This document shows positions 715-37,985 of a stretch of 37,985 nt of DNA, in pieces. The notes beneath the pieces are model-generated. The model was not told where the DNA came from. It did not search any database and saw nothing but the letters and a program-made list of their open reading frames with translations. This DNA comes from Bacteroidota bacterium (lineage in GTDB: Bacteria > Bacteroidota > Rhodothermia > Rhodothermales > Rubricoccaceae): NCBI GenBank assembly GCA_039024735.1, contig JBCCPW010000001.1, positions 1-37,985 of the forward strand, read 5' to 3'. The stretch's first letter is position 1, and every line of letters starts with the position of its first letter. Position numbers and translations under genes: made by a program.

Positions 715-932
715 AGGAAAAGGTGGCAAGGGGAGGGGCGGATGGTGGCCGGCCGGTATCGGTCGATGCACCCGGTCCTTGAATCAGTCTCGTTTCCTGT
801 ACCATCGCTCTTGCAGATCACCGAGGCGGTGCCCGCCTCGGCGTGAGCGTCCATCCGCCTCGGTGCCTCCACCGGTCGGCCTCTCGAGGTGGGACGCCGT
901 CGCCACCGCATCACCGGTTCTCTTAACGAAAG

Positions 933-972
933 CGCCCGCCTCGGTGCGCCGGAAACGGCACCGAGGCGGGCG
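933..972 (-). terminator. Motif-built hairpin downstream of 1001..3451, putative terminator or 3' stabiliser
   Basis: CGCCCGCCTCGGTGC (933-947) pairs perfectly with GCACCGAGGCGGGCG (958-972), about 30 nt past the stop codon. The U-tract is weak. Confidence 0.55.
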
Positions 973-1000
973 GGGAGGCGGACGGGCCGTGTGGCGTCGT

Positions 1001-3451
1001 CTATCGGACGAGCGTCACGCGGCGCGTCTCTCGCACGCCGGGCGCTTCCACGATCACGACATAGGCGCCCGGAGCGAGACCCTCGGTGGGGACCACGACG
1101 CTCGTTTCAGCGGCACCGAGGCGGTGCTGCCGCACGCGGCGTCCGAGGGCGTCGAAGACGGACAGGGTCGCGCCCGCGCCGACCTGCACGTCCAGGTGAA
1201 ACGCGCCGTTGGCGGGGTTCGGGACGGGCGTGCCCACGTAGGCACTCGGAGTCGCGGGCGCCTCGGCGTCCACCACAGCAGCGGTCGTCAGCACGAAGCG
1301 CGGCGCCCACTCGCCGTCGGTGGCCTCGGCGGCAAACGTGTACCGCTCGGCGCTGAGGTCGAGGATGGCGCCGGTCTCCAGATCGCGGAGCGTGCCCTGA
1401 AGACCCGCGCTCCGCCAGACGAGGTCGAACGTGCCCGCCTCGGTGACGAGGATCGAGAGCGGGACGGCGGCGGACCCGTGCGGGAGGGCCAACACGGCCT
1501 GTGCGCGGGGCTCTCCGTCGCGGGTGCCCATCGGGGCGATGAGGCCGACGGCGCCGCCCGGCCAGTCGGGCTTCGAGGCGTCCGTGCGGTCCCAGCCGTC
1601 CGTGGCGTCGTCGCGGAAGCGGATCCAGGTGGTCTCGTCGCGGGTGAGCGCCCCCGAGGCGGTCTCGCCGAACATCGCGAAGCGGATGGCCGCCTCCGCC
1701 TCGGGGCCGTCTTTGCCGTGGAACGGCGGCTCTTCCGTGGTGACCGCCGCGATGGGGTCGAAGAAGAAGGTGACGGGCTGCGTGATGTTGGTCGGGGCCG
1801 TCCCGACGGTTCCGTCCTTCGCGACCTCGATGAGCATCCCGTTCCACACCGCGATGGCGTTCTGCGGCGTGGGATCGTCGGGGCTTCCCATCGGTGGGGG
1901 CAGCGTCTCGAAGACCACCTCGTACGTGCCGGGGCCGTCCTGGTCGATGTCATCCCCTGTGCGCGGGTTGAGGCCGCTGGGGTTTCCGGGGTTCCAGATG
2001 AAGCCTTGCGCTGCCATCGTCCCGCCCGAGGCGGAGAGCGCGTTGAAGTCCATCGGGAAGGTGAACGGGTTGCCGACCATGTAGAAGTCGTCGTCGTTCG
2101 GGGTGATGGTGCCTGGAGGTGCTCCCGCCGTGGTGGGGTCTCCGTTGGGGGTCGTGAAGCCTGCGGGGCAGGTGGTGAAGCTGGAGGCGCAGTTGGTGTT
2201 GTCCGCGAACTCCTCGGAGAAGAGCCCCGTCAGCCTCGGGCCGGTCGCGGAGAGTTGGAAGTTGTCCAACTCCACGCTCACGCTCGTGCCGTCGCCGAAG
2301 GACGGGTCGTTCGGCGTGAAGGCCTGATCGTACCAGTACCACCAGAAGCCGCGTCCGGGGCGGAGGGTCGTGCCGGTCGTCGGGACGGGCACGTAGTCCC
2401 AGCGGGTGCCGCCCTGATAGGCGTCGTAGAAGTTGAATCCGGCGGAGGGGTACTGCGCCTGCGTCACGCCGTCGCCCGCGGGCACGCCGAGCACGACGTT
2501 CTGCTGCGCGAGGTCGTCCACGGTCACGTCGCGCACGGGCGCGGAGAGGAGCCGCCAGCCGGGCTCGTCCACCTGGTCCAGCACACGGTCGGTATCGGTC
2601 ACCACGGGCGGGCCGTTGACCTGGTTGATCTCTCCGACAACAAAGTCGTCGAAGCCGAATGCCTCGTTGTCTACCGGCGCGTTGTCCCGGCCGACGAAGC
2701 TGATGTCGATCCGCTCGTACCGGGTGTCTTCGTCGGTGAAGCCGACGAACGAGACCTGGTAGTTGCCGGGGAAGTCGCCGCGCGGGTCGTCGGTCTGGTT
2801 GTTCTCGTTGGTGACCGGACCGTAGTCCAGCACCACGGGCGTCCCGCCACCGAGGGGGGTCAGCGTGAGGCGAATCGTGTCGTACGCCTCGGTGTCGGAG
2901 ATGTACGCGCCGAAGGCCGAGAACGCGCGGGGTGCGCGGCCCGCGGTCACACTGCCGGGGGCGTACCGGATGCTGAGCGCGATCTCCGTCGAGTTGTCCG
3001 GGACGCTCGCGTCCACACCCGTGTTGACGCCATCGTAGCCCACGGCGTAGAGGTAGTTGTCTCCGCTCGTGGCCCAGGTCCCGAAGATGTTGCCGCTGGT
3101 CGGGTTCACAACCGCCGCGTTCCGCGCGAAGAGCTCGGCTGGGATCTCGGCGGCGCTGCCGTATCCATCGAACCGTGCGATGGTCTCGCTTTCGAGGGGA
3201 GAGTTCGGGGCGCGTGCTGGGGTCGTCGTCTGTGCGGTTTCGCTCTCGAAGTCGAAGAAGGAGATCGAGAGCGGGTCGAGGTCGCCGAGGAACTGATTGC
3301 GGGCCGTGGTGGCGCCGTTAGTAGCGGGAAGTGCCGAGACGGAGGCGGTCGGGACGTACTGGCCGTAGAACGTCTCCGGAGCCGCGTTCTGGGCCGAGGC
3401 GGACGTGGCGCCCAGGAGCAGGGCGCCCAGGAGGAAGTGCCGAATGGACAT
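1001..3451 (-). CDS. T9SS type A sorting domain-containing secreted protein (816 aa)
   Basis: Signal peptide MSIRHFLLGALLLGATSASAQ; internal PGWRLLSAP...GRGFWWYWYD module; C-terminal PVPNPA...SVFDALGRRV...GLAPGAYVVIV...RVTLVR typical of a T9SS CTD. Confidence 0.85.
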   Translation of the reverse strand: MSIRHFLLGALLLGATSASAQNAAPETFYGQYVPTASVSALPATNGATTARNQFLGDLDPLSISFFDFESETAQTTTPARAPNSPLESETIARFDGYGSAAEIPAELFARNAAVVNPTSGNIFGTWATSGDNYLYAVGYDGVNTGVDASVPDNSTEIALSIRYAPGSVTAGRAPRAFSAFGAYISDTEAYDTIRLTLTPLGGGTPVVLDYGPVTNENNQTDDPRGDFPGNYQVSFVGFTDEDTRYERIDISFVGRDNAPVDNEAFGFDDFVVGEINQVNGPPVVTDTDRVLDQVDEPGWRLLSAPVRDVTVDDLAQQNVVLGVPAGDGVTQAQYPSAGFNFYDAYQGGTRWDYVPVPTTGTTLRPGRGFWWYWYDQAFTPNDPSFGDGTSVSVELDNFQLSATGPRLTGLFSEEFADNTNCASSFTTCPAGFTTPNGDPTTAGAPPGTITPNDDDFYMVGNPFTFPMDFNALSASGGTMAAQGFIWNPGNPSGLNPRTGDDIDQDGPGTYEVVFETLPPPMGSPDDPTPQNAIAVWNGMLIEVAKDGTVGTAPTNITQPVTFFFDPIAAVTTEEPPFHGKDGPEAEAAIRFAMFGETASGALTRDETTWIRFRDDATDGWDRTDASKPDWPGGAVGLIAPMGTRDGEPRAQAVLALPHGSAAVPLSILVTEAGTFDLVWRSAGLQGTLRDLETGAILDLSAERYTFAAEATDGEWAPRFVLTTAAVVDAEAPATPSAYVGTPVPNPANGAFHLDVQVGAGATLSVFDALGRRVRQHRLGAAETSVVVPTEGLAPGAYVVIVEAPGVRETRRVTLVR

Positions 3452-3587
3452 AGCGAAGGGAAGCGAGGTGGGCTTCCCTATCGGCCGATCCTGTATCGAA
3501 TTAAAGAACGGTTTGTCCTCTTCTGGCGAAGGTGCTTCCGCCTCGGTGGTCTCCCGACCCCGGGCGACGTGCAGGTCGCGAACGAGA

Positions 3588-3629
3588 CCGCCCGCCTCGG
3601 TGCGCTCGTGAAGCGACCGAGGCGGGCGG
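3588..3629 (-). terminator. Motif-built hairpin downstream of the TIGR01777 gene
   Basis: CCGCCCGCCTCGGT (3588-3601) pairs with ACCGAGGCGGGCGG (3616-3629). Confidence 0.5.
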
Positions 3630-3701
3630 AGTCGGAGCGATCGTCAAGGTCTTGAGACCGTTCGAGATCGCGCTCGTCTTCCTGACGGGAGTGCCCGGTT
3701 G

Positions 3702-4649
3702 CTATGCCCCGCCTCGCCAGCGGTGGACGAGATTCTCTGCCGCGACCTCCCACGTGGGAAACTCAAACGTAAAGCCCTCGGCTGCGAGCCAACCCGGAAC
3801 GACGCGTCGGCTTTTGAGGACCAACTCGGTCTCTGTCCGTAGGAATCGGGCGCCGATTTCCAGCATCCATCGCGTCGCAGGAAGCCCGATTCGGGTGCCC
3901 CATGCCTTGCGCAGCTCTCGCATGAATGCCGCGTTCGGGAGCGGATGCGGGGCCGCGAGATTGACGGCGCCTGCGACGTGCTCGTGCGCGATGAGCCACC
4001 GGATCGCACGAATGAAATCCGCGTCGTGGATCCACGAGACGAACTGCCGTCCGCTGCCGGACGTGCCACCGAGGCCCCGCCGCACGAGTCCGAGGAGCGT
4101 GTCGAACACGCCGCCTCGGTCCGGGCTCATCACCATCGCGGAACGCATGAGCACGAGCCGCACGACGGGCGGGACGGTGGCTTCGGCTTCGTTCTCCCAC
4201 GCCCTCGCCACGTCGATGCTGAAGCGCCACGTCTCGGGCGCGTCGGGCTCATCGCCGCCGATGCGCCCGGTTGCCTCGTCGTTGGGGGCGTCGAAGCGAT
4301 GGGCGTAGATCGTGGCCGTGCTGGACTGGAGCCAGAGCGCAGGAGGACGAGAGACGCTCGCGAGGGCGCGGCCGAGCACGCGCGTCGCCACGCGCGAGTT
4401 CAGGATGGCCGCCCGGTTGGCCGGGGTGTAGCGGCAGTCGACGCTGCGCCCTGCGAGATTGATGAGCGCATCGGCACCGTCCAACTCATCCGTCCACTCG
4501 CCGAGAGTCGTCCCGTCCCACTGGACCGTCCGCCACGGCGCAGGTGCCGGGCTCCGGGTCAGGACCACGACCTCGTGCCCGTCCGCGTGGAAGGCTCGCG
4601 CGAGAAGCGTCCCGATCTGGCCGGACCCGCCAGAGAGGATGACGGTCAT
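3702..4649 (-). CDS. TIGR01777 family NAD-dependent epimerase/oxidoreductase (YfcH-like), 315 aa
   Basis: Rossmann motif VILSGGSGQIG, INLAGRSVDCRY, SSTATIY, GSGRQFVSWIH, and C-terminal LVLKSRRVVPGWLAAEGFTFEFP (DUF1731-like). Confidence 0.9.
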   Translation of the reverse strand: MTVILSGGSGQIGTLLARAFHADGHEVVVLTRSPAPAPWRTVQWDGTTLGEWTDELDGADALINLAGRSVDCRYTPANRAAILNSRVATRVLGRALASVSRPPALWLQSSTATIYAHRFDAPNDEATGRIGGDEPDAPETWRFSIDVARAWENEAEATVPPVVRLVLMRSAMVMSPDRGGVFDTLLGLVRRGLGGTSGSGRQFVSWIHDADFIRAIRWLIAHEHVAGAVNLAAPHPLPNAAFMRELRKAWGTRIGLPATRWMLEIGARFLRTETELVLKSRRVVPGWLAAEGFTFEFPTWEVAAENLVHRWRGGA

Positions 4650-4670
4650 GCGGGTAAAAGGGAAGGAGCC

Positions 4671-4735
4671 ACCCGCCTCGGTGCCCTCGCGGAGCGACCG
4701 AGGCGGGCGGAGTTCTCGCGACGCACCGAGGCGGG

Positions 4736-4736
<1 letters not shown>
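4671..4736 (-). terminator. Three-copy motif cluster and hairpin directly after the acnA stop
   Basis: ACCCGCCTCGGTGC (4671-4684) pairs with GCACCGAGGCGGGT (4723-4736), with an alternative partner copy at 4697. It abuts the acnA stop codon (4736-4738). Confidence 0.5.
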
Positions 4737-7465
<2,729 letters not shown>

Positions 7466-7714
7466 GCCAGAAGGGGAAACAGTACGCGGAGGATAGACGC
7501 CAGAGTCTACGCGGAAGCACCGAGGCGGTGCCGCCCGTGGCGGTGAAGCCCGAGCCCATTTCGGCCCGGCCAGCGGACAGGACCGCCTCGGTGTCTCCCC
7601 GGTGAGACCGAGGCGGAGTGGGGCCGCCCGATCCAATCGCGAGGGGTATCGGGCACGCTCGGGACGACCTCCGTATCGTGGGAGACGGTCCCACCCACCC
7701 GATTCAGTATCCCC

Positions 7715-11859: not shown

Positions 11860-14800
11860 ATGCGAGTCCTCTACGCTCTCGTCGCCCTGCTCGTATGCGC
11901 GACGCTGATCCTCCCCACCTCGGCGCTTGCGCAGCCGTCCTTCACGTCCACCTCGACGTCTCTTCTGAGCCGTGACGACGTGCGCGCGGCGGTCTCCGCC
12001 GACGCCATGACCGGCCCGCTCCGTCACCTCGACGGTACGCTCCAGGCCCTTCACGCCGCACGACAAGCTTATCTCGCAGACCAAGCCGCTGGTCTCACTC
12101 GCCTGTCGTTCGACGAGGCGGTGGGCCTGAGCGCGGTGGCGGGTGAGCGCGTGATCATTGACGCGTTCGCGCACACCGAGGGCGGAGTGGATGCGCTCGC
12201 GAGCGATCTCGCAGCCCTCGGGTTCAAGGAGACCGGCCGCTTCCGGCACATCGTCTCCGGTCGGCTCCCCGTGGACGCCATCGCGGATGCGGCGGCGCTC
12301 AGCACGCTCCGTTCCGCCGCGGCGGCGCTCGCGGCCGTGAATCGGATCCCGGCAGAGCAGATCGAGGCGCTGCGTGCCGTCCGCGATGCCCGCCCTGGAT
12401 CCATCATCGGAGAGGCCAGCGTGGCGCTCCGCGTGGACGGCGCGCGGACACAGTACGGCATTGACGGCTCTGGCATCACCATCGGGGTTCTCTCGGACAG
12501 CTACGACACGGCGACCGCTGGAGGCGGTGCCGCGGGCGGCGTGACCTCGGGGGACCTCCCCGCCTCGGTGAATGTGCTGGACGAGTTTGACTCTCCCGGT
12601 CCTGGAATCGACGAGGGGCGCGCGATGATCGAGGTCGCCTTCGACGTGGCGCCGGGCGCTGATTTCGCGTTTCACACTGCTGTTGAGGGCCAGGCTAGCT
12701 TCGCGCAGGGCATCACGGATCTCCGCAACGCGGGATCGGACGTAGTGGTGGACGACATCATCTACTTCTCCGAGCCCTACTTCCAGGATGGCATCATCGC
12801 GCAGTCCGCCGATGCGTCCTTCGCTGCGGGCGTCCCGTATTTCTCCTCCGCAGGGAACGCAGGCAACCGTGGCTATGAGGCCCTGTTCGTAGACTCTGGC
12901 ACGAGTGTCACTGTCGGGGGTAGGGTCTGCGACCTCCACGACTTTGACCCGGGTCCCGGTGTGGACTTCCTGCTCTCCACATCGCAGGCCGGAGCCGTCA
13001 ACTACAGTCTTCACTACGACGAGCCCTCGGTCCTCGCGGGAGCAGGTCAGGCGCCGACCAGTGATTATGCCCTCGGCTTCTTTTTGGGCGGGTCCACGGT
13101 TGATGTCTTTGACTCCAACAACGCCGCATCGGGTCTGCCCTTTGAGTCCGCAGAACTCAACGGGACCGGTACGTTTAACATCCTGATCCTCCGCTGCTCA
13201 GGAGATGCACGTCAGGTGGCCGTGGTCCCCTTTGGCGGCAACAGTCTGTTCAATGAGTACGGTGGCGGGGAGAGCGGTGGCGCTACGTCCTATGGTCACG
13301 CGAACGCTGCCGGTGCCTTCGGCGTGGGTGCTGCGCCGTGGTTCGACACGCCCCCCTTCACGGCAGCCGCCGAGGCGGTGCCGGAGTCCTTCACGGCGTA
13401 CGGTGGTGTGTTGGTTCGGCTTAATGCAGACGGCACGTTCAAGGCGACACCCGAGGACCGCGAAAAGCCTGACGTGACCGCCTCGGATGCGGACAACAAC
13501 ACGTTCTTCGGCTTCGACGCGACCGAAGACCCCGACACCAACCCCAACTTCTTCGGGACGAGTGCTGCCGCACCCAACCTCGCGGCCGTGGCGGCGCTGA
13601 TGCTCGAGGTGGCCGGCGGCCCTGGCACCATCTCACCGAGTCAGATCTATGCCGCCCTTGAGGGGACGGCCGACGACATCACGGCCTCCGCAGGCACAGC
13701 CGCTGGCTACGACCGGCGCACCGGCAACGGCTTCGTCCGGGGCGACCTCGCCATTGCGGCGTTCGCCTCCGCCCAGGCTGTCGCAGGCAATGCAGGCTGG
13801 CGTTTGCTCGCACCGCCCGCTCCAGGGCTCACCGTGGCAGACCTCGCGGAGATCAACCGTCTCTCGGGCATCCCGGGCTTCGACGAGATCAACAACCCGG
13901 GAGGGAATCCCACCTCGGTGCCTAACATCCTCACCGATTACGACGGCATCACGTTCTTCCCGCCCACTGGCGGCAGCGAGGCGCTCCCCCTCGGCGAGGG
14001 CTTCTGGTGGTACTTCTACGACGTGGACTTCACGGACGGGCCGACCAACCCGAGCATCGCGCTGCCCTTCACACTGGCTGTCAGCGCCGCGCCCACAACC
14101 TCCGACGTGGACGTGACGCTCCACGATGACAACACGAAGGTCAACATGCTCGGCAACCCGTTCGGTGAGAGCCTCGATCTTTCGGGCGCAGCCTCGTGGA
14201 CCGGCGCGGGCAACCTCTTCACACCGGTCTTCGCCATCTACAACGCGGGCTCAAACAGCTACGCCTTCTCTACCACACAGCCGGTCGTCGCGCCGTGGCA
14301 GGGGTTCTTTGCGTACGGCGAGACGGCGGGAACGCTCACCATCCCGGAGTCCGCCCGCACGACGGGAGGCATGCTCAGTCGCGAGGCGGATGAGCGCGTC
14401 TTCCTCGCCTTCGAACTCACCGAGGCGGACCTCGCCGACGGCCAGGAGCCGCTCGCGGACCACGGCGCCGTGCTCTACTTCGACGAGTTCGCCTCGGTGG
14501 GCGAGGACCCGTTCGACCTTGCGAAACTTGCACCGCTCGACCCCGCTCACGTCCTGCTGGCCTTCGAGGCGATCTCGAATGAGGGCGAGCCGGTTCTTCG
14601 CGGGCACGAGGGGCGGTCTCTGCGTGAGGGAGCGTCCGAGATCCCCCTGCACGTCCGGGCCGCCGGTAGCAGCGAGACGCTCACGCTCTCGTGGCCCACG
14701 CTCGACCGCCTCCCTGCGGACTGGACGGTGATGCTCCGTGATACCCAGACCGGCACCGAGGTGGATCTTCGGTCCGAGACGAGCTACACGTTTGAGGTGA

Positions 14801-15213
14801 CTCCGGAGTCTCTCTCGCCGCAGGCCGGTCTCACCGTGCCTGCCCCGAGGCCGATCGCCCTTCCCGGGACGAGAGCCCGTGGTGAATCGGCCCGGTTCAT
14901 GCTGGCCGTGACCCCGCCGCGTTCCACGAGTGAGGAGGTTGACGGTGGCCTCGTGCTCGCCCTCGGCGCTCCGGTGCCGAACCCGGCGAGTGGCGAGGCG
15001 ACGCTCCGGTACGTGCTGCCGACGGCAGGCGCCGTTCGGGTGGATGTGGTGGACCTCCTCGGGCGCACCGTCACGACGCTGGTGGACGGCGAGCGGGCTG
15101 CGGGCGTCGGGACGGCCGTCGTGGACGTGCGGTCTCTGGCGAGCGGCGTGTACGCGGTGCGGCTCGTGGCCGGTGAGGAGATGCGCGTGACGCGTCTGAC
15201 AGTGACGCGGTAA
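11860..15213 (+). CDS. Subtilase-fold (S8/S53-like) serine peptidase with T9SS C-terminal domain (1117 aa)
   Basis: Signal peptide and prodomain; DGSGITIGVLSDS (Asp), DEGRAMIEVAFDVAPGA, SSAGN, KPDVTA, FFGTSAAAP (catalytic Ser); GWRLL...GEGFWWY module; CTD PVPNPASGEATLRY...VVDLLGRTV...LASGVYAVRL. Confidence 0.88.
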   Translation: MRVLYALVALLVCATLILPTSALAQPSFTSTSTSLLSRDDVRAAVSADAMTGPLRHLDGTLQALHAARQAYLADQAAGLTRLSFDEAVGLSAVAGERVIIDAFAHTEGGVDALASDLAALGFKETGRFRHIVSGRLPVDAIADAAALSTLRSAAAALAAVNRIPAEQIEALRAVRDARPGSIIGEASVALRVDGARTQYGIDGSGITIGVLSDSYDTATAGGGAAGGVTSGDLPASVNVLDEFDSPGPGIDEGRAMIEVAFDVAPGADFAFHTAVEGQASFAQGITDLRNAGSDVVVDDIIYFSEPYFQDGIIAQSADASFAAGVPYFSSAGNAGNRGYEALFVDSGTSVTVGGRVCDLHDFDPGPGVDFLLSTSQAGAVNYSLHYDEPSVLAGAGQAPTSDYALGFFLGGSTVDVFDSNNAASGLPFESAELNGTGTFNILILRCSGDARQVAVVPFGGNSLFNEYGGGESGGATSYGHANAAGAFGVGAAPWFDTPPFTAAAEAVPESFTAYGGVLVRLNADGTFKATPEDREKPDVTASDADNNTFFGFDATEDPDTNPNFFGTSAAAPNLAAVAALMLEVAGGPGTISPSQIYAALEGTADDITASAGTAAGYDRRTGNGFVRGDLAIAAFASAQAVAGNAGWRLLAPPAPGLTVADLAEINRLSGIPGFDEINNPGGNPTSVPNILTDYDGITFFPPTGGSEALPLGEGFWWYFYDVDFTDGPTNPSIALPFTLAVSAAPTTSDVDVTLHDDNTKVNMLGNPFGESLDLSGAASWTGAGNLFTPVFAIYNAGSNSYAFSTTQPVVAPWQGFFAYGETAGTLTIPESARTTGGMLSREADERVFLAFELTEADLADGQEPLADHGAVLYFDEFASVGEDPFDLAKLAPLDPAHVLLAFEAISNEGEPVLRGHEGRSLREGASEIPLHVRAAGSSETLTLSWPTLDRLPADWTVMLRDTQTGTEVDLRSETSYTFEVTPESLSPQAGLTVPAPRPIALPGTRARGESARFMLAVTPPRSTSEEVDGGLVLALGAPVPNPASGEATLRYVLPTAGAVRVDVVDLLGRTVTTLVDGERAAGVGTAVVDVRSLASGVYAVRLVAGEEMRVTRLTVTR

Positions 15214-15240: not shown

Positions 15241-15273
15241 GGCCCGCCTCGGTGCTCTTCACCGAGGCGGGCC
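15241..15273 (+). terminator. Perfect motif-built hairpin, probable intrinsic terminator of the peptidase gene
   Basis: GGCCCGCCTCGGTG-CTCTT-CACCGAGGCGGGCC followed by GTTTCGTT, 28 nt after the TAA. Confidence 0.7.
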
Positions 15274-20550: not shown

Positions 20551-21036
20551 ATGGCCCTCTTCCGTTCCGCCTCGGAGTCCCCGTCTGGATCCCCCCTCCC
20601 CATGGCCAAGACCCGCACCTCTGCCCCCGTGTCCTCCGCTGACCAGCACAACATCATCGGGTCCGGGTCCGTCGTGGAGGGGACGCTTCGTGCCGGAGGC
20701 AACGTCCACGTCTCAGGCACGGTCAACGGCAACGTGGAGGTGGACGGCCGGACGGTCGTGATGCCGGGCGGCGTGATCGACGGCGAACTCGTCTCGTCCA
20801 GCGCCGAGGTGGGCGGGCGCGTGAAAGGTCACGTGCGGTGCTCGGATCGTCTCGTGCTCAAGCCGACGGCCGTGATCGACGGCGACATCCAGACGGTGAA
20901 GCTGGTGATTGAGGACGGCGCGACGTTCAACGGCCGCTGTCAGATGGGGCCGACCGCCGGGCAGCGTCGCTCCGGTGAGTCGCGAGGGGACCGCACGCGC
21001 AGTGCACCCGCCACCGAGGCGAAGAACGCCGCGTGA
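20551..21036 (+). CDS. Bactofilin (polymer-forming cytoskeletal protein); alternative start at 20602
   Basis: NIIGSGSVVEGTLRAGGNVHVSGTVNGNV...GRVKGHVRCSDRLVLKPTAVIDGDIQTVKLVIEDGATFNGRCQM beta-helix signature. Confidence 0.93.
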   Translation: MALFRSASESPSGSPLPMAKTRTSAPVSSADQHNIIGSGSVVEGTLRAGGNVHVSGTVNGNVEVDGRTVVMPGGVIDGELVSSSAEVGGRVKGHVRCSDRLVLKPTAVIDGDIQTVKLVIEDGATFNGRCQMGPTAGQRRSGESRGDRTRSAPATEAKNAA

Positions 21037-21473
21037 GCCGCCGTCCTGCCGATGACCCCGACCGCCTCGGTCCCGAGGCGGACGACGCTTCGCCGGATGA
21101 GGCGTGGCCGGACGAGCCCGACGCCTGGGAGGCCTCCGACCGCGAGTGGCGCGAGAAGTGGGAGCCTCGCGAGGAAGACGAGGACGCTGTAGAGCCGCCA
21201 CCTGCCCACTACCAACCCCGAACGACCTCTGCAAAAGGCGTGGCGTCGTCCTACGAGGAGGGCATGCGCGAGGCCGGGCCATATCTCACCATCGGGCTCC
21301 AGATCGCCCTGTCCATGTTCTTCTTCGTTGGGGCTGGGTGGGCGCTGGATGAGTTCGCGGGCACGAGCCCGTGGGGGGTGCTGGTCGGGGCGGTCCTGGG
21401 CTTCCTCGGCGTGATCGGGCTGGTGATCCGACTCGCACACGAAGCGGACGCGTCGAACCGACCGCCTCGGTGA
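21033..21473 (+). CDS. AtpZ/AtpI (ATPase gene 1) family membrane protein with acidic N-terminal extension
   Basis: YLTIGLQIALSMFFFVGAGWALDEFAGTSPWGVLVGAVLGFLG two-helix pattern. The GTG start overlaps the bactofilin stop (GTGA). Confidence 0.8.
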   Translation: MSRRPADDPDRLGPEADDASPDEAWPDEPDAWEASDREWREKWEPREEDEDAVEPPPAHYQPRTTSAKGVASSYEEGMREAGPYLTIGLQIALSMFFFVGAGWALDEFAGTSPWGVLVGAVLGFLGVIGLVIRLAHEADASNRPPR

Positions 21474-21637
21474 CGCGGACCGGTACCGAGGCGGAATCGG
21501 GCGCGACGAAAACGCAAGCCCTGTCCGTCCCTTCGAAGTGTTTTCACCCCCCCTTGCGGGGGCCTACTCAGGGCGGCGGGTAGCTTGGTTGCCCTCCCCA
21601 AAAGGAGGTCGATCCAGACCCCTTCTCCGCTCCACTC

Positions 21638-26559: not shown

Positions 26560-26566
26560 GGCGAGC

Positions 26567-27502
26567 ATGGCGAGCCTCAGAGACATCCGCAACCGGATCG
26601 GCACGGTCCAGAACACGCAGCAGATCACGCGCGCCATGAAAATGGTGGCCGCGGCGAAGCTGCGGAAGGCGCAGGAGCGGATCTTCACCACCCGCCCGTA
26701 CGCGTTCAAGATCCGCGAGATGATCGGGCACCTCCGCCAGCGGCTCGACCCGCTCGCGCACCCGCTCTTCCAGCCGCGCGAGGAGGTGGCGAGCGTGCTG
26801 CTCGTCGTGGTGACGAGCGACCGTGGACTGGCCGGTGCCTTCAACTCGAATCTCCTCAAGGTGGTCGAGGCGCGGATCCAGGAGGACTACGCCCACCTCG
26901 GTCAGGAGAACCTGCACGTCCTCGCCGTGGGGCGGAAGGGGCACGAGTACTTCGCCAACCGGGGCTACGATCTCGTGGGCGACTTCCGAGGCGCCTTCAA
27001 CGATCTCCGCTTCCCCATCGCGGGCGAGGTCATCCAGATCGCCGTGGAGGGCTTCGACGCGGGCCGATGGGACCTGGTCGAGGTGGTCTACAACGAGTTC
27101 AAAAACACCATCTCGCAGAACCGCGTCGCAGAGCAACTGCTGCCCATCCCGGCCGAAACGTTCTTCACGCCGGTCATGGAGGACGCATCCGATGTGGCGA
27201 CAGAGTCCACCGAGGCGGGCGAGGGCGAGGTGGAGTACATCTTCGAGCCGAGCGCGCAGGCGCTGCTCAACCGCCTCGTGCCGGAGTACCTCCAGTACCA
27301 GCTGTGGCGCGCGATGCTGGAGAGCAACGCCGCCGAGCAGGGCGCGCGGATGGTCGCGATGGAGAACGCCACGACGAACGCGGGCGAGCTTCTGAAAGAC
27401 CTCCGCCTGACGTACAACCGCGCCCGCCAGGCCGCCATCACGACCGAGATCATCGAGATCTCGTCCGGCGCCGAGGCGCTGCGGCAGGCCCAGGGCGGCT
27501 GA
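26567..27502 (+). CDS. atpG: F0F1 ATP synthase subunit gamma (311 aa)
   Basis: MASLRDIRNRIGTVQNTQQITRAMKMVAAAKL, SDRGLAGAFN, AEQGARMVAMENATTNA, YNRARQAAITTEIIEI. Confidence 0.99.
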   Translation: MASLRDIRNRIGTVQNTQQITRAMKMVAAAKLRKAQERIFTTRPYAFKIREMIGHLRQRLDPLAHPLFQPREEVASVLLVVVTSDRGLAGAFNSNLLKVVEARIQEDYAHLGQENLHVLAVGRKGHEYFANRGYDLVGDFRGAFNDLRFPIAGEVIQIAVEGFDAGRWDLVEVVYNEFKNTISQNRVAEQLLPIPAETFFTPVMEDASDVATESTEAGEGEVEYIFEPSAQALLNRLVPEYLQYQLWRAMLESNAAEQGARMVAMENATTNAGELLKDLRLTYNRARQAAITTEIIEISSGAEALRQAQGG

Positions 27503-27600: not shown

Positions 27601-27713
27601 TCCCCGCCTCGGTGAGGCTACAAGATGCACCGAGGCGGGGAGAGTCCGCCGCTGGGCGTCGTGTTTCGCTTCAGCGGTCCGCCTCGGTGCTTCTGAAGAG
27701 GCACCGAGGTGGA
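27601..27713 (+). terminator. Two successive motif-built hairpins after atpG
   Basis: TCCCCGCCTCGGTG / CACCGAGGCGGGGA (27601-27641) and TCCGCCTCGGTGC / GCACCGAGGTGGA (27678-27713, one G-U pair). Confidence 0.55.
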
Positions 27714-27806: not shown

Positions 27807-27904
27807 GACGACGGACCACAGACGACGGACCACAGACGACGGACCACAGACGACGGACCACAGACGACGGACCACGGGCGGATGGTGGTCTGTCGTCCGT
27901 GGTC
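27807..27904. repeat. 14-bp tandem repeat (GACGACGGACCACA)x5 plus an inverted arm
   Basis: Four perfect copies and one variant copy at 27807-27876; inverted arm GTGGTCTGTCGTCCGTGGTC at 27885-27904. Confidence 0.92.
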
Positions 27905-27958
27905 TCCGCCACACACGGAGACCGAACGGCATCCAGACATCAGAGCCATGAAACGGTA

Positions 27959-28324: not shown

Positions 28325-28453
28325 GAGACCGTTGGGGGTTGAAGGTGCCACAAGGTTGAGCATCTGCGGCGCGGGGGCCTCCGGCGAACGGGTGGTTTGA
28401 GTCTCGTCCTTTCGGCCGAGGCGGTACCGAGGCGGTGTCTGTAGCCTCGTGCC

Positions 28454-30258: not shown

Positions 30259-30264
30259 AGCCCG

Positions 30265-30292
30265 CCCGCCTCGGTGGGCACACCGAGGCGGG
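30265..30292. terminator. Motif-built hairpin filling the 35-nt gap between convergent genes, putative bidirectional terminator
   Basis: CCCGCCTCGGTG-GGCA-CACCGAGGCGGG between the stops at 30258 and 30294. Confidence 0.65.
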
Positions 30293-30293
30293 G

Positions 30294-31772: not shown

Positions 31773-31820
31773 AAGTGGTCTGGTCAGAAAGTCCAGAATG
31801 GATCTGGATGATAGCCACTT
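31773..31820. promoter_or_regulatory. Putative MocR operator in the divergent promoter
   Basis: AAGTGGTCT...AATGGATCT direct repeats plus inverted AGCCACTT (reverse complement AAGTGGCT) in an AT-richer patch. This two-direct-plus-one-inverted layout is typical of MocR-family sites. Confidence 0.65.
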
Positions 31821-31865
31821 TGGGCCGGAGGTTGGGCGTGCCTCTCGTTTTCCCCCCTCCAACCG

Positions 31866-32759
31866 ATGACCCGTCCGTCGCCGCCGATGGCCGCCGTGCT
31901 GGCCGCCTTCGGCATCGTCTACCTCGTCTGGGGCTCCACGTACCTCGCGATCCGCTTCGCCATCGAGACGCTCCCGCCGTTCACGATGGCCGGGTCGCGG
32001 TTCGCCATCGCGGGCCTCGTGCTGTACGCCATCGTTCGGCTCCGGGGCGCGGAGGCACCGAGGCGGGCGCACTGGCGGACCGCCGCCATCGTAGGGACGC
32101 TTCTCCTGGTGGGCGGCATCGGCGCGACCACCTGGGCCATCCAGCGGATCCCGTCGGGCATCGCGGCGCTCCTCGTCGCGACGCTCCCGATGTGGATGGT
32201 TCTCATCGACGCCACGCGGCAGCGCGTGCGGCCGACCGCCTCGGTGGCACTCGGGGTCGCCCTCGGGCTGGCCGGGGTGGCGGTGCTGATCGGACCGTCG
32301 GAGTTGGGCAGCGAGCCTGTGGACCTCCTCGGTGCGGTGACGGTGCTGGGCGCGACGATGAGCTGGTCGGCGGGCTCGGTGTACCAGCGCGGGGCCGAGA
32401 CGGCGCCTGACACGCTGCTCAACGTCGCGATGCAGATGCTCGTGGGGGGCGTGCTGCTGATCGCCCTCGGGGGCCTCCTCGGTGAGCGTCCGGTGCTGGA
32501 CGAGGCCTCGCTCCGGTCCATGCTCTCGCTCGCGTACCTGATCGTGTTCGGGTCGCTGATCGCGTACAGCGCCTACGTCTGGCTGCTGGGCGTGTCCACG
32601 CCCGCGAAGGTCTCGACGTACGCCTACGTCAACCCGGTGGTGGCGGTGATCCTCGGCTGGTGGCTCGCGGACGAGCCGCTCAACGGGCGCGTGGTCCTCG
32701 CGGCGGTGGCGGTCGTCACGGCCGTCGTGCTGATGACGCGCCGAAAGAAGGTGGCGTGA
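31866..32759 (+). CDS. EamA/DMT family transporter (YedA-like), 297 aa
   Basis: VYLVWGSTYLAIRFAIETLPPF, IPSGIAALL, YLIVFGSLIAYSAYVWLL, STYAYVNPVVAVILG; about 10 TM helices. Confidence 0.93.
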   Translation: MTRPSPPMAAVLAAFGIVYLVWGSTYLAIRFAIETLPPFTMAGSRFAIAGLVLYAIVRLRGAEAPRRAHWRTAAIVGTLLLVGGIGATTWAIQRIPSGIAALLVATLPMWMVLIDATRQRVRPTASVALGVALGLAGVAVLIGPSELGSEPVDLLGAVTVLGATMSWSAGSVYQRGAETAPDTLLNVAMQMLVGGVLLIALGGLLGERPVLDEASLRSMLSLAYLIVFGSLIAYSAYVWLLGVSTPAKVSTYAYVNPVVAVILGWWLADEPLNGRVVLAAVAVVTAVVLMTRRKKVA

Positions 32760-32777
32760 CGGTCCGCCTCGGGGCGC

Positions 32778-32815
32778 TCCGCCTCGGTGCCTTCGCGAGG
32801 ACGCACCGAGGCGGG
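32778..32815. terminator. Motif-built hairpin between convergent genes
   Basis: TCCGCCTCGGTGC (32778-32790) pairs with GCACCGAGGCGGG (32803-32815), between the stops at 32759 and 32821. Confidence 0.6.
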
Positions 32816-32820
32816 AGGCG

Positions 32821-33708
32821 TCAGAGCGCGAGGAGGCGGATGGCGCCGCTGCCGGTGCCGACGCGGATCGTCGCGCCGCCGCCGCTCAGTCGGCCCCGGG
32901 CCTCGCGGCGCTCCTCCTGACCGGCAAAGTCCAGGTCGTCGTCGATGCGGACCGAGCCGCCGTCGAGGTTCACGTCGAAGCCGTCACGGTCGTCGAGGCG
33001 GAGGGTGACGCTGCCGGAGCCGGTGTCGAAGACCGCCCGGCCGGTGTCCGCCAGCGCGAGGTCTACGTCGCCGGAGCCGGTGTCCACCGAGACGGTGCCG
33101 CCCTCCACGATCCCGATCTCAACATCACCGGAGCCGGTGTCGATGCGGACATCGCCGCGAAGGCGTCCGGCCTCCACATCGCCCGAGCCGGTGTCGATCA
33201 GGATGGTGTCGCCGGTCACGTTCTCCAGCGACACGTCGCCGGAGCCGGTGTCGATGCGTGCGTCGCCGGTGATGGACGCGAGTTGGATGTCGCCTGCGCC
33301 CGTGTCGAGAGAAACGGAGTACTCGCGCGGGATCTCGAGGGTGACCGTGAACGAGGCCTCGGTGCGGGTCCAGCGGCCCCAGCGCCGAGGCGGGCGGGTG
33401 CGGACGATGAGGTCGGAGCCAGAGGCCTGGGCGGAGAAGCGGCGGCGCTCGAACTCGCGCTCGGCATCGCGCCCGCGGCCTTCCACGGTCACGCGAGCGC
33501 GGTCGCCACGGGTGGTGCGGATCGTCACGTTCTCGTTGCCGAGGTCGAGCCGGAGTTCGCCGCCCGCCCGGACGCGGAAGATCTCATCGAAGAGGACATC
33601 GGTCGAAGCCGCCGTCGCGAAAGGAGGGGGCACCGAGGCGGACACCACGGGCGCCGCGACGGCGAGGAGGAGGGGGATCGCGAGGAGCGAGAGGAGGCGA
33701 GAGCGCAT
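32821..33708 (-). CDS. DUF4097 family beta-strand repeat protein, secreted (295 aa)
   Basis: Signal peptide; repeated (I/V/F)DTGSGDV units; C-terminal GGGATIRVGTGSGAIRL. Confidence 0.85.
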   Translation of the reverse strand: MRSRLLSLLAIPLLLAVAAPVVSASVPPPFATAASTDVLFDEIFRVRAGGELRLDLGNENVTIRTTRGDRARVTVEGRGRDAEREFERRRFSAQASGSDLIVRTRPPRRWGRWTRTEASFTVTLEIPREYSVSLDTGAGDIQLASITGDARIDTGSGDVSLENVTGDTILIDTGSGDVEAGRLRGDVRIDTGSGDVEIGIVEGGTVSVDTGSGDVDLALADTGRAVFDTGSGSVTLRLDDRDGFDVNLDGGSVRIDDDLDFAGQEERREARGRLSGGGATIRVGTGSGAIRLLAL

Positions 33709-33943
33709 GGTGGCAGAACAAGGGGGTGCGTCCCGGACGGTCTCCGCCTCGGGGAGGTTACACGGTCTGCGAAAAAAACCGCACGGCCTGGTTCTGGAAT
33801 GTGACCGGGCTCGAAGAATCCCGGCGCACCGAGACGGCCGACCGCTGTCCCGTCTCGGTGGTCAGTGGGCGCCGCTCGCTTGTGGCACAGGCAGTGTCAC
33901 TTTCGGCCAACCGGGATGCACCGAGGCGGGCGTGTGAGAGGGG

Positions 33944-34420
33944 TCAGACGCGGCGCTGTCCGTTTCGCCCCGGCGGCGGGGCCTCCTGACGGATGACGGC
34001 GTCTGTCATCCAGCACCCGTCGTACTCGCCCCCGCGCTGGCGGGAGAGGCCGAAGACGTACGCCACGCGCCGTCCGTCGGACTGAACGAGCGTGACGCGC
34101 TGGGCCGCTTCGTCTCCCTGGATCCGGATGTCGCTGTACATCGCGCGCTCGAAGCCGAGCATGTCCCGGTAGGCCGGGCCCTTGACCATCGCCGTGAACC
34201 GCTCCAGCGGCCCGGTCGCCGCGCGGTTGTCGGGTGACGCGAAGCGGAAGGCGGTCGCGATGCCTGCGTCATCCTCGTTGTTGGCTTGCAACGCTTCTAC
34301 CTGGAGGCGGATGACCTCCTCGGCGGTGAGGTCAGGGGAGGGTTTGGGATCGTCCATGGGGTCGGCGCGAATCGCCAGTAGCGCGATGGGAAGCACCAGG
34401 AGAAGGAAGAGAGGACGCAT
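33944..34420 (-). CDS. DUF4864-like domain protein, exported (158 aa)
   Basis: PSPDLTAEEVIRLQVEALQ...GIATAFRFASPDNR...GPLERFTAMV..PAY...YVFGLSRQ...GCWMTDAV. Start trimmed to ATG 34420. Confidence 0.75.
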   Translation of the reverse strand: MRPLFLLLVLPIALLAIRADPMDDPKPSPDLTAEEVIRLQVEALQANNEDDAGIATAFRFASPDNRAATGPLERFTAMVKGPAYRDMLGFERAMYSDIRIQGDEAAQRVTLVQSDGRRVAYVFGLSRQRGGEYDGCWMTDAVIRQEAPPPGRNGQRRV

Positions 34421-34603
34421 GGGGTCGGGACGCGGGCTCTCCTTTCGTATCGACACCGCGCCGAGAAGGTCCCGCGAACGCCCGGCGTTCCAGGCGCCCG
34501 GAGAACACAGGCCGCCTCGGTTCTGCCGACCGTCCTCCTCGGTGCCGATGCCAAACCACCGAGGCGGGCGATGTGGAACTCTCCGTGACGAGCGGCCGAG
34601 CGG

Positions 34604-34633
34604 TTGCCCCGGGGCTCGCGCGCACCCTAGATT
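34604..34633 (+). promoter_or_regulatory. Candidate sigma-70-type promoter of tRNA-Ser
   Basis: TTGCCC-N18-TAGATT followed by a GC-rich discriminator, 11 nt before the tRNA. Confidence 0.4.
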
Positions 34634-34644
34634 CGCGGCCCCAC

Positions 34645-34734
<90 letters not shown>

Positions 34735-34745
34735 TGCGAATTCCG

Positions 34746-34780
34746 AAAACCGGTCCAGGCTCCCGTCCTGGGCCGGTTTT
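34746..34780 (+). terminator. Intrinsic terminator after tRNA-Ser
   Basis: AAAACCGGTCCAGG-CTCCCGT-CCTGGGCCGGTTTT. Confidence 0.85.
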
Positions 34781-35121
34781 CTGTATCTGGGGGGCGGGAT
34801 CGGGGGTGTCTTGATCTTGATCGGCGTTCTCTAGAATCGTCCGCCACGAGGCGACGAGGAAGACGGTGGGCTCCTGCTGACGGTGAGCTCCTGTGGCAGC
34901 AGATCGCGAGGGTACCGCCTCGGTCCCCTGCTGCCCAGGGAACAGTGGAATCGGCACCGAGGCGGGGCGACTGGGCTGGTGAGCGTCGGGCCTGGCCGGT
35001 CGGGGAGGGGTCTCATCCGTTCCCGTTGCGACGCGGCCGGGGTTCGTTTGGAGTCGGCATGGGGCCTCTACCCGAGTGGCTCCCGCCTACATATGTTCCG
35101 GCACCTTCACCCGCTCTCCCT

Positions 35122-37985
35122 ATGCGCTCCCTACTGCTCTCCCTCCTCCTCTCGCTCGTGCTGGTGGTGCCTGCCAGTGCCCAGGAGGACCCGCTCACTG
35201 TGGCGGACTTGAGCTACAACGCCCTCTCGTGGCGAGGCATCGGACCGGCCTTCACGTCAGGCCGCATCGCCGACATCGCGATTCACCCGCACGACCCGCA
35301 AACGTGGTACGTCGCCGTCGGCAGCGGTGGCGTGTGGATGACCTCGAACAGCGGCACCACCTGGACCTCCCTCTTCGACGGACAGTCGTCCTACTCGACT
35401 GGGTCCATCGCGATCGATCCGCAGAACCCGAACATCATCTGGGTGGGGACCGGCGAGAACGTCGGCGGACGGCACGCAGCCTACGGCGACGGCATCTACC
35501 GCTCGTCCGACGGCGGCCGGACGTGGGAAAACCGCGGCCTCAAAGAGAGCGAACGCCTTTCCACCATCTGGATCCATCCCGACGATTCCGACGTGGTGCT
35601 TGTCGCGGCGCAGGGCCCGATGTGGAGCAGCGGCGGCGAACGCGGCCTCTACCGCACGGAAGACGGCGGCGAGACGTGGTCCCAGGTGCTCGGCGACGAT
35701 GAGTGGACCGGTGCGACGGACATCGTCGTGGACCCGCGTGACCCCGACGTGATGTACGCCGCCACGTGGGACCGCCATCGAACCGTCGCGGCCTACATGG
35801 GCGGTGGCCCCGGAACCGGCATCCACAAGAGCACCGACGGCGGCCGGACGTGGACGGAACTGACACGCGGGCTGCCCTCGAGCAACATGGGCAAGATCGG
35901 CCTCGCCATCTCCCATCAGAACCCGGATATCGTCTACGCGGCCATTGAGACGGACCAGCGCAGCGGTGGCATCTGGGTGACCCGAGACCGAGGCGCGCGA
36001 TGGACCAAAGCCTCGGACGCGGTCGCCGGAGGGACCGGCCCGCACTACTACCAGGAACTGTACGCCTCGCCGCATCACGAGGGCCGCATCTACCTGATGG
36101 ACGTGCGCGTGCAGCAGTCCAATGACCACGGCGAGACCTTCTTTATCCAGAACACCAGAAACAAGCACGTCGACAACCACGCGCTCGCCTTCCACCCGAC
36201 CGATCCCGACTACCTCCTCGCTGGGACGGACGGCGGCATCTACGAGTCGGTCGATGGCGGCAACAGTTGGCGGTACATCGACAACCTCCCCGTCATCCAG
36301 TACTACAAGGTCGCCGTGGACGATGCGGCTCCCTTCTACAACATCTACGGCGGCACCCAGGACAACAACTCGCACGGCGGCCCCTCGGCCACAGACACGC
36401 GCGAGGGGGCAGGCAACGGCGACTGGTTCATCACACTCGGTGGCGACGGCCACCAGTCGGCCACCGAGCCGGGCAACCCGGACATCACCTACGCTCAGTC
36501 CCAACAGGGCAACCTGCACCGGATCGATCAGGTCACCGGCGAGGCGACGTACATCGTGCCGCAGCCCGGACCGGGCGAAGGCCCCGAGCGCTTCAACTGG
36601 GACGCCCCGATCCTCGTCAGCCCGCACGACCCTGCGACGCTCTACTTCGCCTCGCAGCGGGTGTGGATGTCGACCAACCGTGGCGACAGCTGGACGGCCA
36701 TCTCGGGCGACCTGACGCGCAATCAGGAACGCTTCGAACTCCCGATCATGGGCCGCATCCAGTCGATCGACAACGCGTGGGACATCTACGCGATGTCGGT
36801 CTACAACACGATCACTTCGGTGGACGTGTCGGCTCAGGACGCCAACCTGATCTACGCAGGAACAGACGACGGCTTGCTGCAGGTCACCGAGGACGGTGGC
36901 GGCTCGTGGCGCGCCATCGAAGTTGGCTCGATCCGCGGCGTGCCTGCGACCGCCTTTGTCAACCACGTCTACGCTGATCTGCACGACGCCAACACGGTCT
37001 ACGCTGCGCTCGACAACCACAAGTACGGCGACTTCGCCCCGTACCTCGTCAAGAGCACGGATCGCGGCCGTTCATGGGAGATGGCGACCGAGGGCATCCC
37101 CGAGCGCACGCTGGTGTGGCGTCTCGTCCAGGACCACGTGCAGCCTGACCTGCTCTTCGCGGCTACCGAGTTCGGCGTGTACTTCTCGCCCGACCGAGGC
37201 GGCGAGTGGATCGAACTCGGCGGGGACATGCCGACCATCGGCGTGCGCGACATCGTCATCCAGCGCCGCGAGAATGACCTGGTAGCGGGAACGTTCGGGC
37301 GCGGCTTCCTCATCCTCGATGATTACAGCCCGCTGCGCGAGATGACCGACGATGTCCTGGCGAGCGAAGGGCATCTCTTCGGCCTGCGCGACGCCAAGCG
37401 CTTCAACTATCGCCGGGCCAGCAACGGGTCGGTTGGCGATGACGAGTACCGGGCTCCCAACCCCGAGTACGGGGCCGTCTTCACGTACTACCTCCGCGAC
37501 GGCTTCCAGAGCCTCGAAGCCCAGCGCAAGAAGGCGGAGGGCGAGATCGAGGACGGCGAGGACGTGCCGTTCCCCGGCTGGGACGCCCTGGATGCCGAGC
37601 GCAACGAGGAAGCCGACCGCGTCGAGTTGCACATCCGGACCGCCGAGGGCGATGTGATTGCGCGGGTCCAAGGCCGAAACTCGAAGGGCTTGCATCGGGT
37701 CGCGTGGGATCTCGAGCGAGACGCGCTCGGACCGATCACGCCGGGCGAGAACAGCCGCGTGAGTGGCTTTGAGGCCGAACCGGGCACGTACTCGGCCACG
37801 CTCGTGCGCATCGCGGCCGGAGAGACGCAGACGCTCTCGGTGCCGGTCTCCTTCGATATAGTGCCGCTACGCGACGGCGCTCTCCGCTCCGCATCGCCTG
37901 CGGACCTGACAGCGTTCCGCGAGCGCATGGAGCGTCTCGCGACCGAGATGTCGCTCTTCTCGAATGCCGTGGAGCGCGCCAGTGA
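35122..37985 (+). CDS. VPS10/sortilin-like BNR (Asp-box) repeat protein, commonly annotated as glycosyl hydrolase; 3' end beyond the window
   Basis: Not in the ORF track because it is open at the window end. Frame from ATG 35122: MRSLLLSLLLSLVLVVPASAQ...WRGIGPAFTSGRIADIAIHP...GSGGVWMTSNSGTTW...GTGE...GDGIYRSSDGGRTW, with repeated S/T.D.G.TW Asp-boxes, GGTQDN, RFNWDAP and GTFGRGF. Confidence 0.9.
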   Translation, partial: MRSLLLSLLLSLVLVVPASAQEDPLTVADLSYNALSWRGIGPAFTSGRIADIAIHPHDPQTWYVAVGSGGVWMTSNSGTTWTSLFDGQSSYSTGSIAIDPQNPNIIWVGTGENVGGRHAAYGDGIYRSSDGGRTWENRGLKESERLSTIWIHPDDSDVVLVAAQGPMWSSGGERGLYRTEDGGETWSQVLGDDEWTGATDIVVDPRDPDVMYAATWDRHRTVAAYMGGGPGTGIHKSTDGGRTWTELTRGLPSSNMGKIGLAISHQNPDIVYAAIETDQRSGGIWVTRDRGARWTKASDAVAGGTGPHYYQELYASPHHEGRIYLMDVRVQQSNDHGETFFIQNTRNKHVDNHALAFHPTDPDYLLAGTDGGIYESVDGGNSWRYIDNLPVIQYYKVAVDDAAPFYNIYGGTQDNNSHGGPSATDTREGAGNGDWFITLGGDGHQSATEPGNPDITYAQSQQGNLHRIDQVTGEATYIVPQPGPGEGPERFNWDAPILVSPHDPATLYFASQRVWMSTNRGDSWTAISGDLTRNQERFELPIMGRIQSIDNAWDIYAMSVYNTITSVDVSAQDANLIYAGTDDGLLQVTEDGGGSWRAIEVGSIRGVPATAFVNHVYADLHDANTVYAALDNHKYGDFAPYLVKSTDRGRSWEMATEGIPERTLVWRLVQDHVQPDLLFAATEFGVYFSPDRGGEWIELGGDMPTIGVRDIVIQRRENDLVAGTFGRGFLILDDYSPLREMTDDVLASEGHLFGLRDAKRFNYRRASNGSVGDDEYRAPNPEYGAVFTYYLRDGFQSLEAQRKKAEGEIEDGEDVPFPGWDALDAERNEEADRVELHIRTAEGDVIARVQGRNSKGLHRVAWDLERDALGPITPGENSRVSGFEAEPGTYSATLVRIAAGETQTLSVPVSFDIVPLRDGALRSASPADLTAFRERMERLATEMSLFSNAVERAS

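Follow-up and report, generated by a model that had tools for sequence, protein, structure and literature searches.

The 37,985-nucleotide stretch of DNA analyzed here, hereafter the window (contig JBCCPW010000001.1 of NCBI GenBank assembly GCA_039024735.1, from a Bacteroidota bacterium of the Rubricoccaceae), is densely populated by a 10-base word, ACCGAGGCGG. This is a real, genome-wide and non-polar word, in all likelihood a recognition word. Our preferred reading, which we regard as quite possible while holding it tentatively, is that ACCGAGGCGG would be the Chi site of the lineage's horizontally swapped RecBCD, piled up by biased recombination.

The window holds 64 exact copies of ACCGAGGCGG between positions 820 and 37202 (Table 1), for a zero-order expectation of 0.35, which agrees with the roughly 60 copies and 0.4 expected that an earlier note on this DNA had tallied. 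The word is non-palindromic and close to balanced between the strands (34 plus, 30 minus), as that note described. Its claims that 37 of 63 copies were intergenic and that the word lies inside most genes are also borne out, since 37 of the 64 copies are non-coding and 27 coding, and at least one copy sits in 17 of the 27 genes called in the window. Genes were called with our own gene caller, which finds 3,123 across the source genome.

The source genome (G000; 3,424,325 bases in 461 contigs, 87% complete) contains 5,859 copies, or 1.7/kb, where 33 are expected at order 0, 121 under a Markov model of order 3 (a 48-fold excess, the model having been trained on sequence already containing the word) and 300 at order 4. 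Median density is 1.68/kb over the 310 contigs longer than 5 kb, and the enrichment first noticed in the window is strong against Markov and codon-shuffled backgrounds alike and is not confined to that stretch. The flanks extend the word to (G)(C)ACCGAGGCGG(R), with C at position -1 in 70% of copies, G at -2 in 51% and a purine at +1 in 79%; outside this consensus, the copies in G000 have no flank in common. As for the word itself, positions 3-6 (CGAG) are nearly intolerant of change (3-43 copies per single mismatch), and single mismatches are frequent at positions 1, 8 and 10. The two large contigs of low density that were annotated, C2 (0.32/kb) and C15 (0.61/kb), carry mostly polysaccharide genes (33 proteins scanned).

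Coding sequence accounts for 3,047 copies (52%, 1.03/kb), spread over 1,560 of the 3,123 genes, and 2,794 copies are intergenic (6.0/kb). The coding copies are evenly divided between sense (1,588) and antisense (1,459) and use the tolerated frames TEAx, xRLG and xASV. Three synonymous-codon shuffles leave 344-389 of them, and the tripeptide TEA occurs 2,030 times versus 587 for its permutations, which together indicate that the protein sequence itself has been bent by the word; an artefact or a codon effect as the cause of its abundance is ruled out by the Markov and codon-shuffle comparisons. The copies in genes were made mostly by point substitution. In alignments with 112 orthologues from the relative G028 (~57% identity), 79 of 93 coding sites align gap-free and three face a gap, while gaps near the sites are more frequent than in the background (15% versus 5.6%), as expected because the sites are permissive.

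Outside genes, back-to-back pairs of the word are conspicuous, with spacers peaking at 0 (265 pairs) and 14 bases (222 pairs). The 20-base palindrome was absent from all viral contigs examined. The 222 spacers of 14 bases comprise 213 different sequences whose complementarity is near random. The word lies in 309 of the 353 convergent gene gaps, and 595 genes have a ACCGAGGCGG hairpin within 30 bases past the stop; we reject the possibility that these are intrinsic terminators, since a run of at least three T follows the hairpin in 12 of the 595 only. An origin of distant inverted pairs by template switching was likewise rejected, because their flanks show no added complementarity. Strand skew, raised in the earlier note as a possible sign of another role, revealed no replichore polarity (G000 contigs, χ2 95, 132 degrees of freedom; no tie to GC skew), and a word found in G028, GCCTCTGGCG, shows none in 17 samples around that single-contig genome. 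FtsK-orienting polar sequences (KOPS) and a polarized Chi of the E. coli type were rejected on these grounds.

These features bear on the explanation, which we consider very improbable and largely refuted, that the copies are remnants of a repetitive extragenic palindromic (REP)-like or miniature inverted-repeat transposable element (MITE)-like hairpin spread by a REP-associated tyrosine transposase (RAYT). While the intergenic density, the convergent gaps, the post-stop hairpins and the raised gap frequency would suit it, no Y1_Tnp domain was found in G000 (87% complete as it is), G027, G031, G034, G040 or G041, the coding sites mostly align gap-free, and the 14-base spacers differ from one another, with no shared flank beyond the consensus. 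RAYT occurs in 17 of 50 genomes of the family, G000 not being one of them, and was rejected as the source of the word since it is absent from G000 and five other word carriers. The REP-like alternative mentioned in the earlier note is thus abandoned, copies being mostly not inserted and half of them lying in genes.

Relatives of the source genome turned out to carry other words, as seen in a comparison of 50 genomes of the family (G000 and 49 relatives) and an order-level set of 201 genomes, in which the reversed word served as the abundance control (noisy outside the family, with ratios up to ~3, one of 5 at low counts). High counts of ACCGAGGCGG occur in G034 (2,317 copies), G027 (1,852), G040, G041, G030, G031, G032, G046 and G001, with 29-49 copies of the reversed control, and CCGAGGCGG reaches 13,545 copies, in G034. 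G028 and G025 carry 16,991 and 14,211 copies of GCCTCTGGCG, respectively, and none of the 199 remaining genomes searched has more than 164. GCTGGCGG occurs 8,186 times in G026 (reversed control 1,635), is raised in ~10 genomes of g11 and weakly raised in G035, G036 and G049. Samples of 2-150 kb, from which the other dialect words were found, give GGCGGGGYGG as the word of G029, CGAGCTGGCG as that of G023 and a palindrome around CCTCGAGG as that of G037 and G044. At least five words, with densities of up to 4.4/kb, occur in the family, and G030 and G046 each carry two at half strength. Congeners of similar distance differ in word (G000 versus G026), and dialects are scattered across the species tree rather than following core phylogeny; on a tree of ComEC, our sole species proxy, they change 8 times versus 9.6 after shuffling (22 genomes, P = 0.15). 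In the RecC-less genera g3 and g5-g8, word-to-control ratios reach at most 3.4 for CCGAGGCGG and 1.3 for GCTGGCGG.

The words resemble Chi. Written in Chi orientation, ACCGAGGCGG, GCTGGCGG, GCCTCTGGCG and GGCGGGGYGG share a G-rich ending, GG(C/T)G(G), and CCTCGAGG fits the pattern through a shared CGAGG only. GCTGGCGG figures among five candidate Chi motifs (PMC8022716) and has been suggested as a weaker site in a study giving GCTGGCGC, unskewed, as the Chi of Pseudomonas syringae and reporting that skew is lacking also for the Chi of H. influenzae, B. subtilis and S. aureus (PMC5959072). Because of the resemblance we examined RecC. In the source genome, recC lies on C3 and recB and recD lie on C124; the sole relative in the PDB, with the G026 protein as the query, is E. 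coli RecC. Few genomes of the order encode RecC (26 of 201), which is present in 34 of the 50 family genomes, but in none of the 14 genomes of g3 and g5-g8, where no strong word was seen. Moreover, recC has been horizontally swapped between genera: G026 and G033 are 79% alike in RecC versus 54% in ComEC, G000 and G027 are 47% alike in RecC versus 79% in ComEC, and monophyly of the four tested RecCs of g1 is rejected (approximately unbiased test, p-AU 4e-8).

The dialects were further compared with RecC by splitting them into two classes, CTGGCG-type (12 genomes) and the rest (11), and placing them on trees of 22 genomes (G028 omitted for frameshifts, unlabelled genomes uncounted). The class changes 4 times on the RecC tree (P = 0.008 versus shuffles), 7 times on the ComEC tree (P = 0.44) and 5-6 times on the trees of four pilin-like proteins (16-18 genomes, P 0.46-0.86). 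The best of the 662 RecC columns is the equivalent of E. coli L36, with L in 10 of 12 CTGG-type genomes and V in all 11 others (2 of 300 permutations were equally good), and the Q38 equivalent ranks third, being Q in 11 of the 12 CTGGCG-type genomes and R in 8 of the other 11 (Fisher p = 0.003, relatives counted as if independent). Independent pairs on the ComEC tree number 3.7 in the same direction and 0 in the opposite one. The determinants of Chi recognition have been called elusive in a paper that lists Q38 among the residues involved (PMC5959072), and a helix adjacent to the L36/Q38 region has been placed at the Chi site (PMC4614115).

The recC, recB and recD genes (L203, L202, L228 and other recC loci) are often richer in their own genome's word than average, with 22 CCGAGGCGG in the 5.1 kb of G000 recB-recD (C124:3453-8517) and 15 GCCTCTGGCG-type words in the 2.5 kb of G025 recC. 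The recC and minor pilin genes of G028 are frameshifted (C1:2344805-2345552, 2515656-2516004), probably by sequencing indels. The RecC-less G022, G016, G010, G002 and G017 gave no match to an AddAB-sized nuclease with a weak profile and may resect breaks otherwise.

Under the Chi reading, RecBCD would degrade DNA from a double-stranded end up to the point where RecC encounters the word. Since the word would stop resection, a word-bearing allele would be kept, and a word-less one overwritten by gene conversion. Two-ended breaks or incoming linear double-stranded DNA would create the bias on both strands, with no need for replichore polarity, a symmetry that we infer from what is known of RecBCD biochemistry (PMC9836394). 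The word would shift when the RecC channel changes in its L36/Q38 region or when a new recBCD allele arrives, upon which old copies would decay and new ones accumulate, and G030 and G046 would be in transit between words. Weak recognition per site would raise density above that of E. coli Chi, and the back-to-back pairs past stops would reflect a secondary use as 3'-end hairpins.

Several observations weigh against this reading. Known Chi densities are ~0.2-0.3/kb versus 1.7-4.4/kb here (PMC8022716, PMC5959072). The CTGG-versus-rest grouping is post hoc, made after the Q/R pattern was seen, and six genes were tried; with five dialect classes P is 0.034 for RecC and 0.05 for the 217-residue pilin, and with independent contrasts p is 0.125 for the ComEC tree and 1 for the RecC tree. 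G031, G040 and G046 have Q38 yet use CCGAGGCGG, G023 has R38 yet uses a CTGGCG word, and G000 and G027 share a word despite their dissimilar RecCs. RecC accompanies a weak word or none in G039, G045, G024 and the g4 genomes, and a word is present with no RecC match in G041 (81% complete) and G044 (65%). Outside the family, six RecC carriers show no excess of GCTGGCGG and the five tested show none of CCGAGGCGG; the channel residues of these carriers differ, and distant metagenome recC loci lack such a word. Classical transformation brings in single strands, which are not a RecBCD substrate. The geometry of close pairs is not the same between dialects, and an asymmetry between the 5' and 3' shadows of decayed copies was looked for and none was seen. 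An out-of-sample test, set beforehand, on 80 metagenome recC loci yielded five of family type, none of which is independent evidence: L417 matches G026, L418 and L419 fall in the class for which there was no prediction, and L421 and L422, which are G032-like with R38, hold 18 and 7 CCGAGGCGG, as predicted. The earlier suggestion of a recombination protein site gains from RecC fitting the dialects better than the uptake proteins do, and loses from the four Q38 exceptions and the weak contrasts.

The orientation of neighboring copies adds a further point. Within genes, neighbors 60-500 bases apart are depleted in the same orientation (448 of 1,184, 0.378 versus 0.501 expected), as they are in G028 too; among 60 ordinary 7-mers the largest downward deviation is -0.03. 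This depletion shows a directional reader without naming which. The DNA uptake sequence (DUS) of Neisseria, in a control of 820 collapsed open reading frames (ORFs) with 70 pairs only, is depleted equally (27 of 70, 0.386 versus 0.509, p = 0.04). The spacing pattern thus does not single out Chi, to the detriment of the Chi reading, and was dropped as a discriminator between Chi and DUS.

The main rival is an uptake receptor, because every genomic trait is common to DUS and to the uptake signal sequence (USS). This would be a third DUS/USS family, in which a surface receptor on a non-canonical type IV pilus would bind the word and uptake bias would spread it, an explanation that we regard as somewhat unlikely. 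The word matches DUS and USS in its density, its strictly kept core, its occurrence in both orientations and at permissive coding sites, its inverted pairs past stops and its depletion in islands (bioRxiv 2025.10.24.684340, PMC12616744, PMC3630211), to which the identical orientation statistic can be added. The source genome also encodes PilB, PilT, PilC, a secretin, pilin-like genes, ComEC and DprA, and its ComEA appears cut by a contig end. However, this machinery is equally common in word-less genera (ComEC in 49 of 50 genomes, a minor-pilin profile in 47 of 50, DprA in 5 of 5). The 139-residue minor pilin, acidic in almost every genome, does not track dialect, nor do ComEC and the 217-, 237- and 573-residue pilin-like proteins (major pilins, paralogues and ComEA lie outside this test); all five were rejected as receptors, since their trees and alignment columns are at most borderline in their association with dialect and word-less genera have them too. 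Furthermore, DUS dialects follow core phylogeny (PMC3630211), whereas those of the family are scattered. The genome-level picture drawn in the earlier note stands, and our analysis makes it DUS/USS-like in density (~1/kb in genes), both strands, lack of polarity, post-stop pairs, island depletion, dialects and competence genes; no dialect-tracking receptor was found among ComEC and the four pilin-like proteins, and the uptake role is putative.

The non-canonical type IV pilus cluster is family-wide (L101, at 1898-6816 of C52 in G000; L102, C220; L151, C291; L105) and comprises PilB, PilC, PilT, a secretin and three further pilin-like genes. Its pilins start with MGQQQLLL and escape the Pfam N-methyl model, and one pilin-like gene ends in a Cys/His-rich domain. 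A second cluster, resembling a type II secretion system and with classical N-methyl pilins (L113, G027 C6:1-20000), was found in G027 only of five genomes tested.

Another explanation, improbable in our view, is a word like highly iterated palindrome 1 (HIP1), made by methyltransferase-linked repair bias, or the site of a mobile nucleoid or repair protein. One dialect is palindromic around CTCGAG, patchy alternate HIPs accompany matching methyltransferases (PMC4390886), G000 encodes an MmeI-like enzyme, a C5 and an N4/N6 methyltransferase, and a dimer might account for pairs being spaced by a fixed 0 or 14 bases. On the other hand, close homologues of the MmeI-like enzyme are encoded by the word-less G017, G022 and G024, and the search gave none in G026, G041 or G046; G028, the most word-rich genome, has no PF00145 or PF01555 match (five genomes tested); the main word of G029 is without adenine; and four of five dialects are non-palindromic. 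These three methyltransferase families, the ones searched, do not track the word and were rejected as drivers, which leaves the HIP1-like methylation alternative of the earlier note without support; HIP1-like readings (PMC4390886, PMC13756078) are less likely. The source genome strongly avoids GCCGGC (0.10 of expectation) and CTCGAG (0.18), around which the abundant word of G037 and G044 is built. Its MmeI-like restriction-modification gene adjoins a NurA-domain gene (L064, C319, 163-4894).

The positions of the word are collected in Table 1. Type IX sorting domains were found on genes of the window, and a long ORF (35122-37983, plus strand) reaches its end; the overlapping minus-strand ORFs were scanned and gave no Pfam match. 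Elsewhere in the source genome, tandem arrays of 12-18-base units with one word each often radiate from a back-to-back pair, several of them at contig ends. We rejected the idea that dense word clusters flank a driver gene, since they are tandem arrays next to unrelated genes.

Table 1. Positions of ACCGAGGCGG copies and inverted pairs in the window, and of tandem arrays in the source genome
Feature	Position	Strand	Remark
ACCGAGGCGG starts, window	820, 960, 1115, 3616, 4697, 4725, 7519, 7607, 10850, 11706, 14419, 15261, 15340, 15690, 15863, 15948, 19096, 21485, 22258, 23155, 23806, 27209, 27629, 28426, 29216, 30282, 31474, 32057, 32805, 33632, 33920, 34558, 34956, 37193	+	exact match
ACCGAGGCGG starts, window	855, 936, 1435, 3538, 3592, 4111, 4673, 7363, 7583, 10414, 11506, 12560, 15244, 15963, 20011, 21062, 21462, 23573, 24684, 27604, 27679, 29311, 30032, 30266, 30385, 30470, 32236, 32779, 34512, 34915	-	exact match
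Back-to-back inverted pair, 14-base spacer	936..969		directly past stop of gene 1001-3451 (-)
Inverted pair, 14-base spacer	3592..3625		3' of epimerase gene 3702-4649 (-)
Inverted pair, 14-base spacer	4673..4706		3' of aconitase gene 4736-7465 (-)
Inverted pair, 14-base spacer	7583..7616		between divergent genes
Inverted pair, 7-base spacer	15244..15270		3' of gene 11860-15213 (+)
Inverted pair, 13-base spacer	21462..21494		overlaps end of gene 21033-21473
Inverted pair, 15-base spacer	27604..27638		3' of ATP synthase gamma gene 26567-27502 (+)
Inverted pair, 6-base spacer	30266..30291		between convergent genes
Inverted pair, 16-base spacer	32779..32814		between convergent genes
Tandem arrays, G000	C142:4960-5103, C307:13-123, C19:4647-4777, C88:19-122, C236:1-88		

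We found no description of the family words in the literature searched, subscription journals and supplements being outside its scope. To our knowledge, genomes laden with uptake words are confined to two bacterial families, and Chi sites have been described in few species, where their density is modest. More speculatively still than for the Chi reading itself, it is conceivable that Chi acts as a selfish, swappable genome signature, in which gain or mutation of recBCD would let biased repair rewrite up to 4% of a chromosome, and thousands of codons, within one genus. If true, DUS-like words could arise without any uptake receptor, and so far unexplained hyperabundant words of other lineages might have the same origin. 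At least five mutually replacing words among close species of one family constitute a natural experiment, from which one could read a RecC-to-Chi recognition code, test whether molecular drive acts at the recombination step and gauge how far a signal can bend a proteome. Should uptake be the cause, this would be a third DUS/USS system, outside the Proteobacteria.

Compared with known systems, the word shares with REP elements and REPINs (REP doublets that form hairpins) and their RAYTs the hairpins directly past stop codons, and differs in being a 10-base unit with half of its copies in codons without insertion, in a genome without RAYT. Like HIP1 and the alternate HIPs of cyanobacteria, the family words are very dense, lie in genes, are made by substitution, replace one another patchily and include one palindromic dialect. 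Unlike them, they are mostly non-palindromic (the G037/G044 dialect being the only palindrome), have no matching methyltransferase among the three families and, beyond a CG core, share no methylatable base across dialects. The likeness to DUS (Neisseriaceae, receptor ComP) and USS (Pasteurellaceae, predicted receptor PpdA/ComN) extends to ~1 copy per kb in genes, both strands, a strict core, frame choice, inverted pairs after genes, dialects and same-orientation depletion. The differences are an unrelated sequence, the lack of a classical N-methyl pilin in G000 and of a dialect-tracking pilin among the four, dialects not congruent with phylogeny, and hairpins without U-tracts. As for Chi, the family words are 9-10 bases long, up to 5-20 times denser (1.7-4.4/kb) and up to ~300-fold over the reversed-word control, form inverted pairs after genes, turn over between species of one genus and reshape the proteome, their Chi activity being putative; E. 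coli Chi is moreover polarized along the replichores, and ACCGAGGCGG is not. In common with Chi (E. coli GCTGGTGG, P. syringae GCTGGCGC, candidate GCTGGCGG), they are short, non-palindromic, G-rich words, poorer in acquired islands than in native DNA, in a family that encodes RecBCD and in which one dialect is identical to a candidate Chi.

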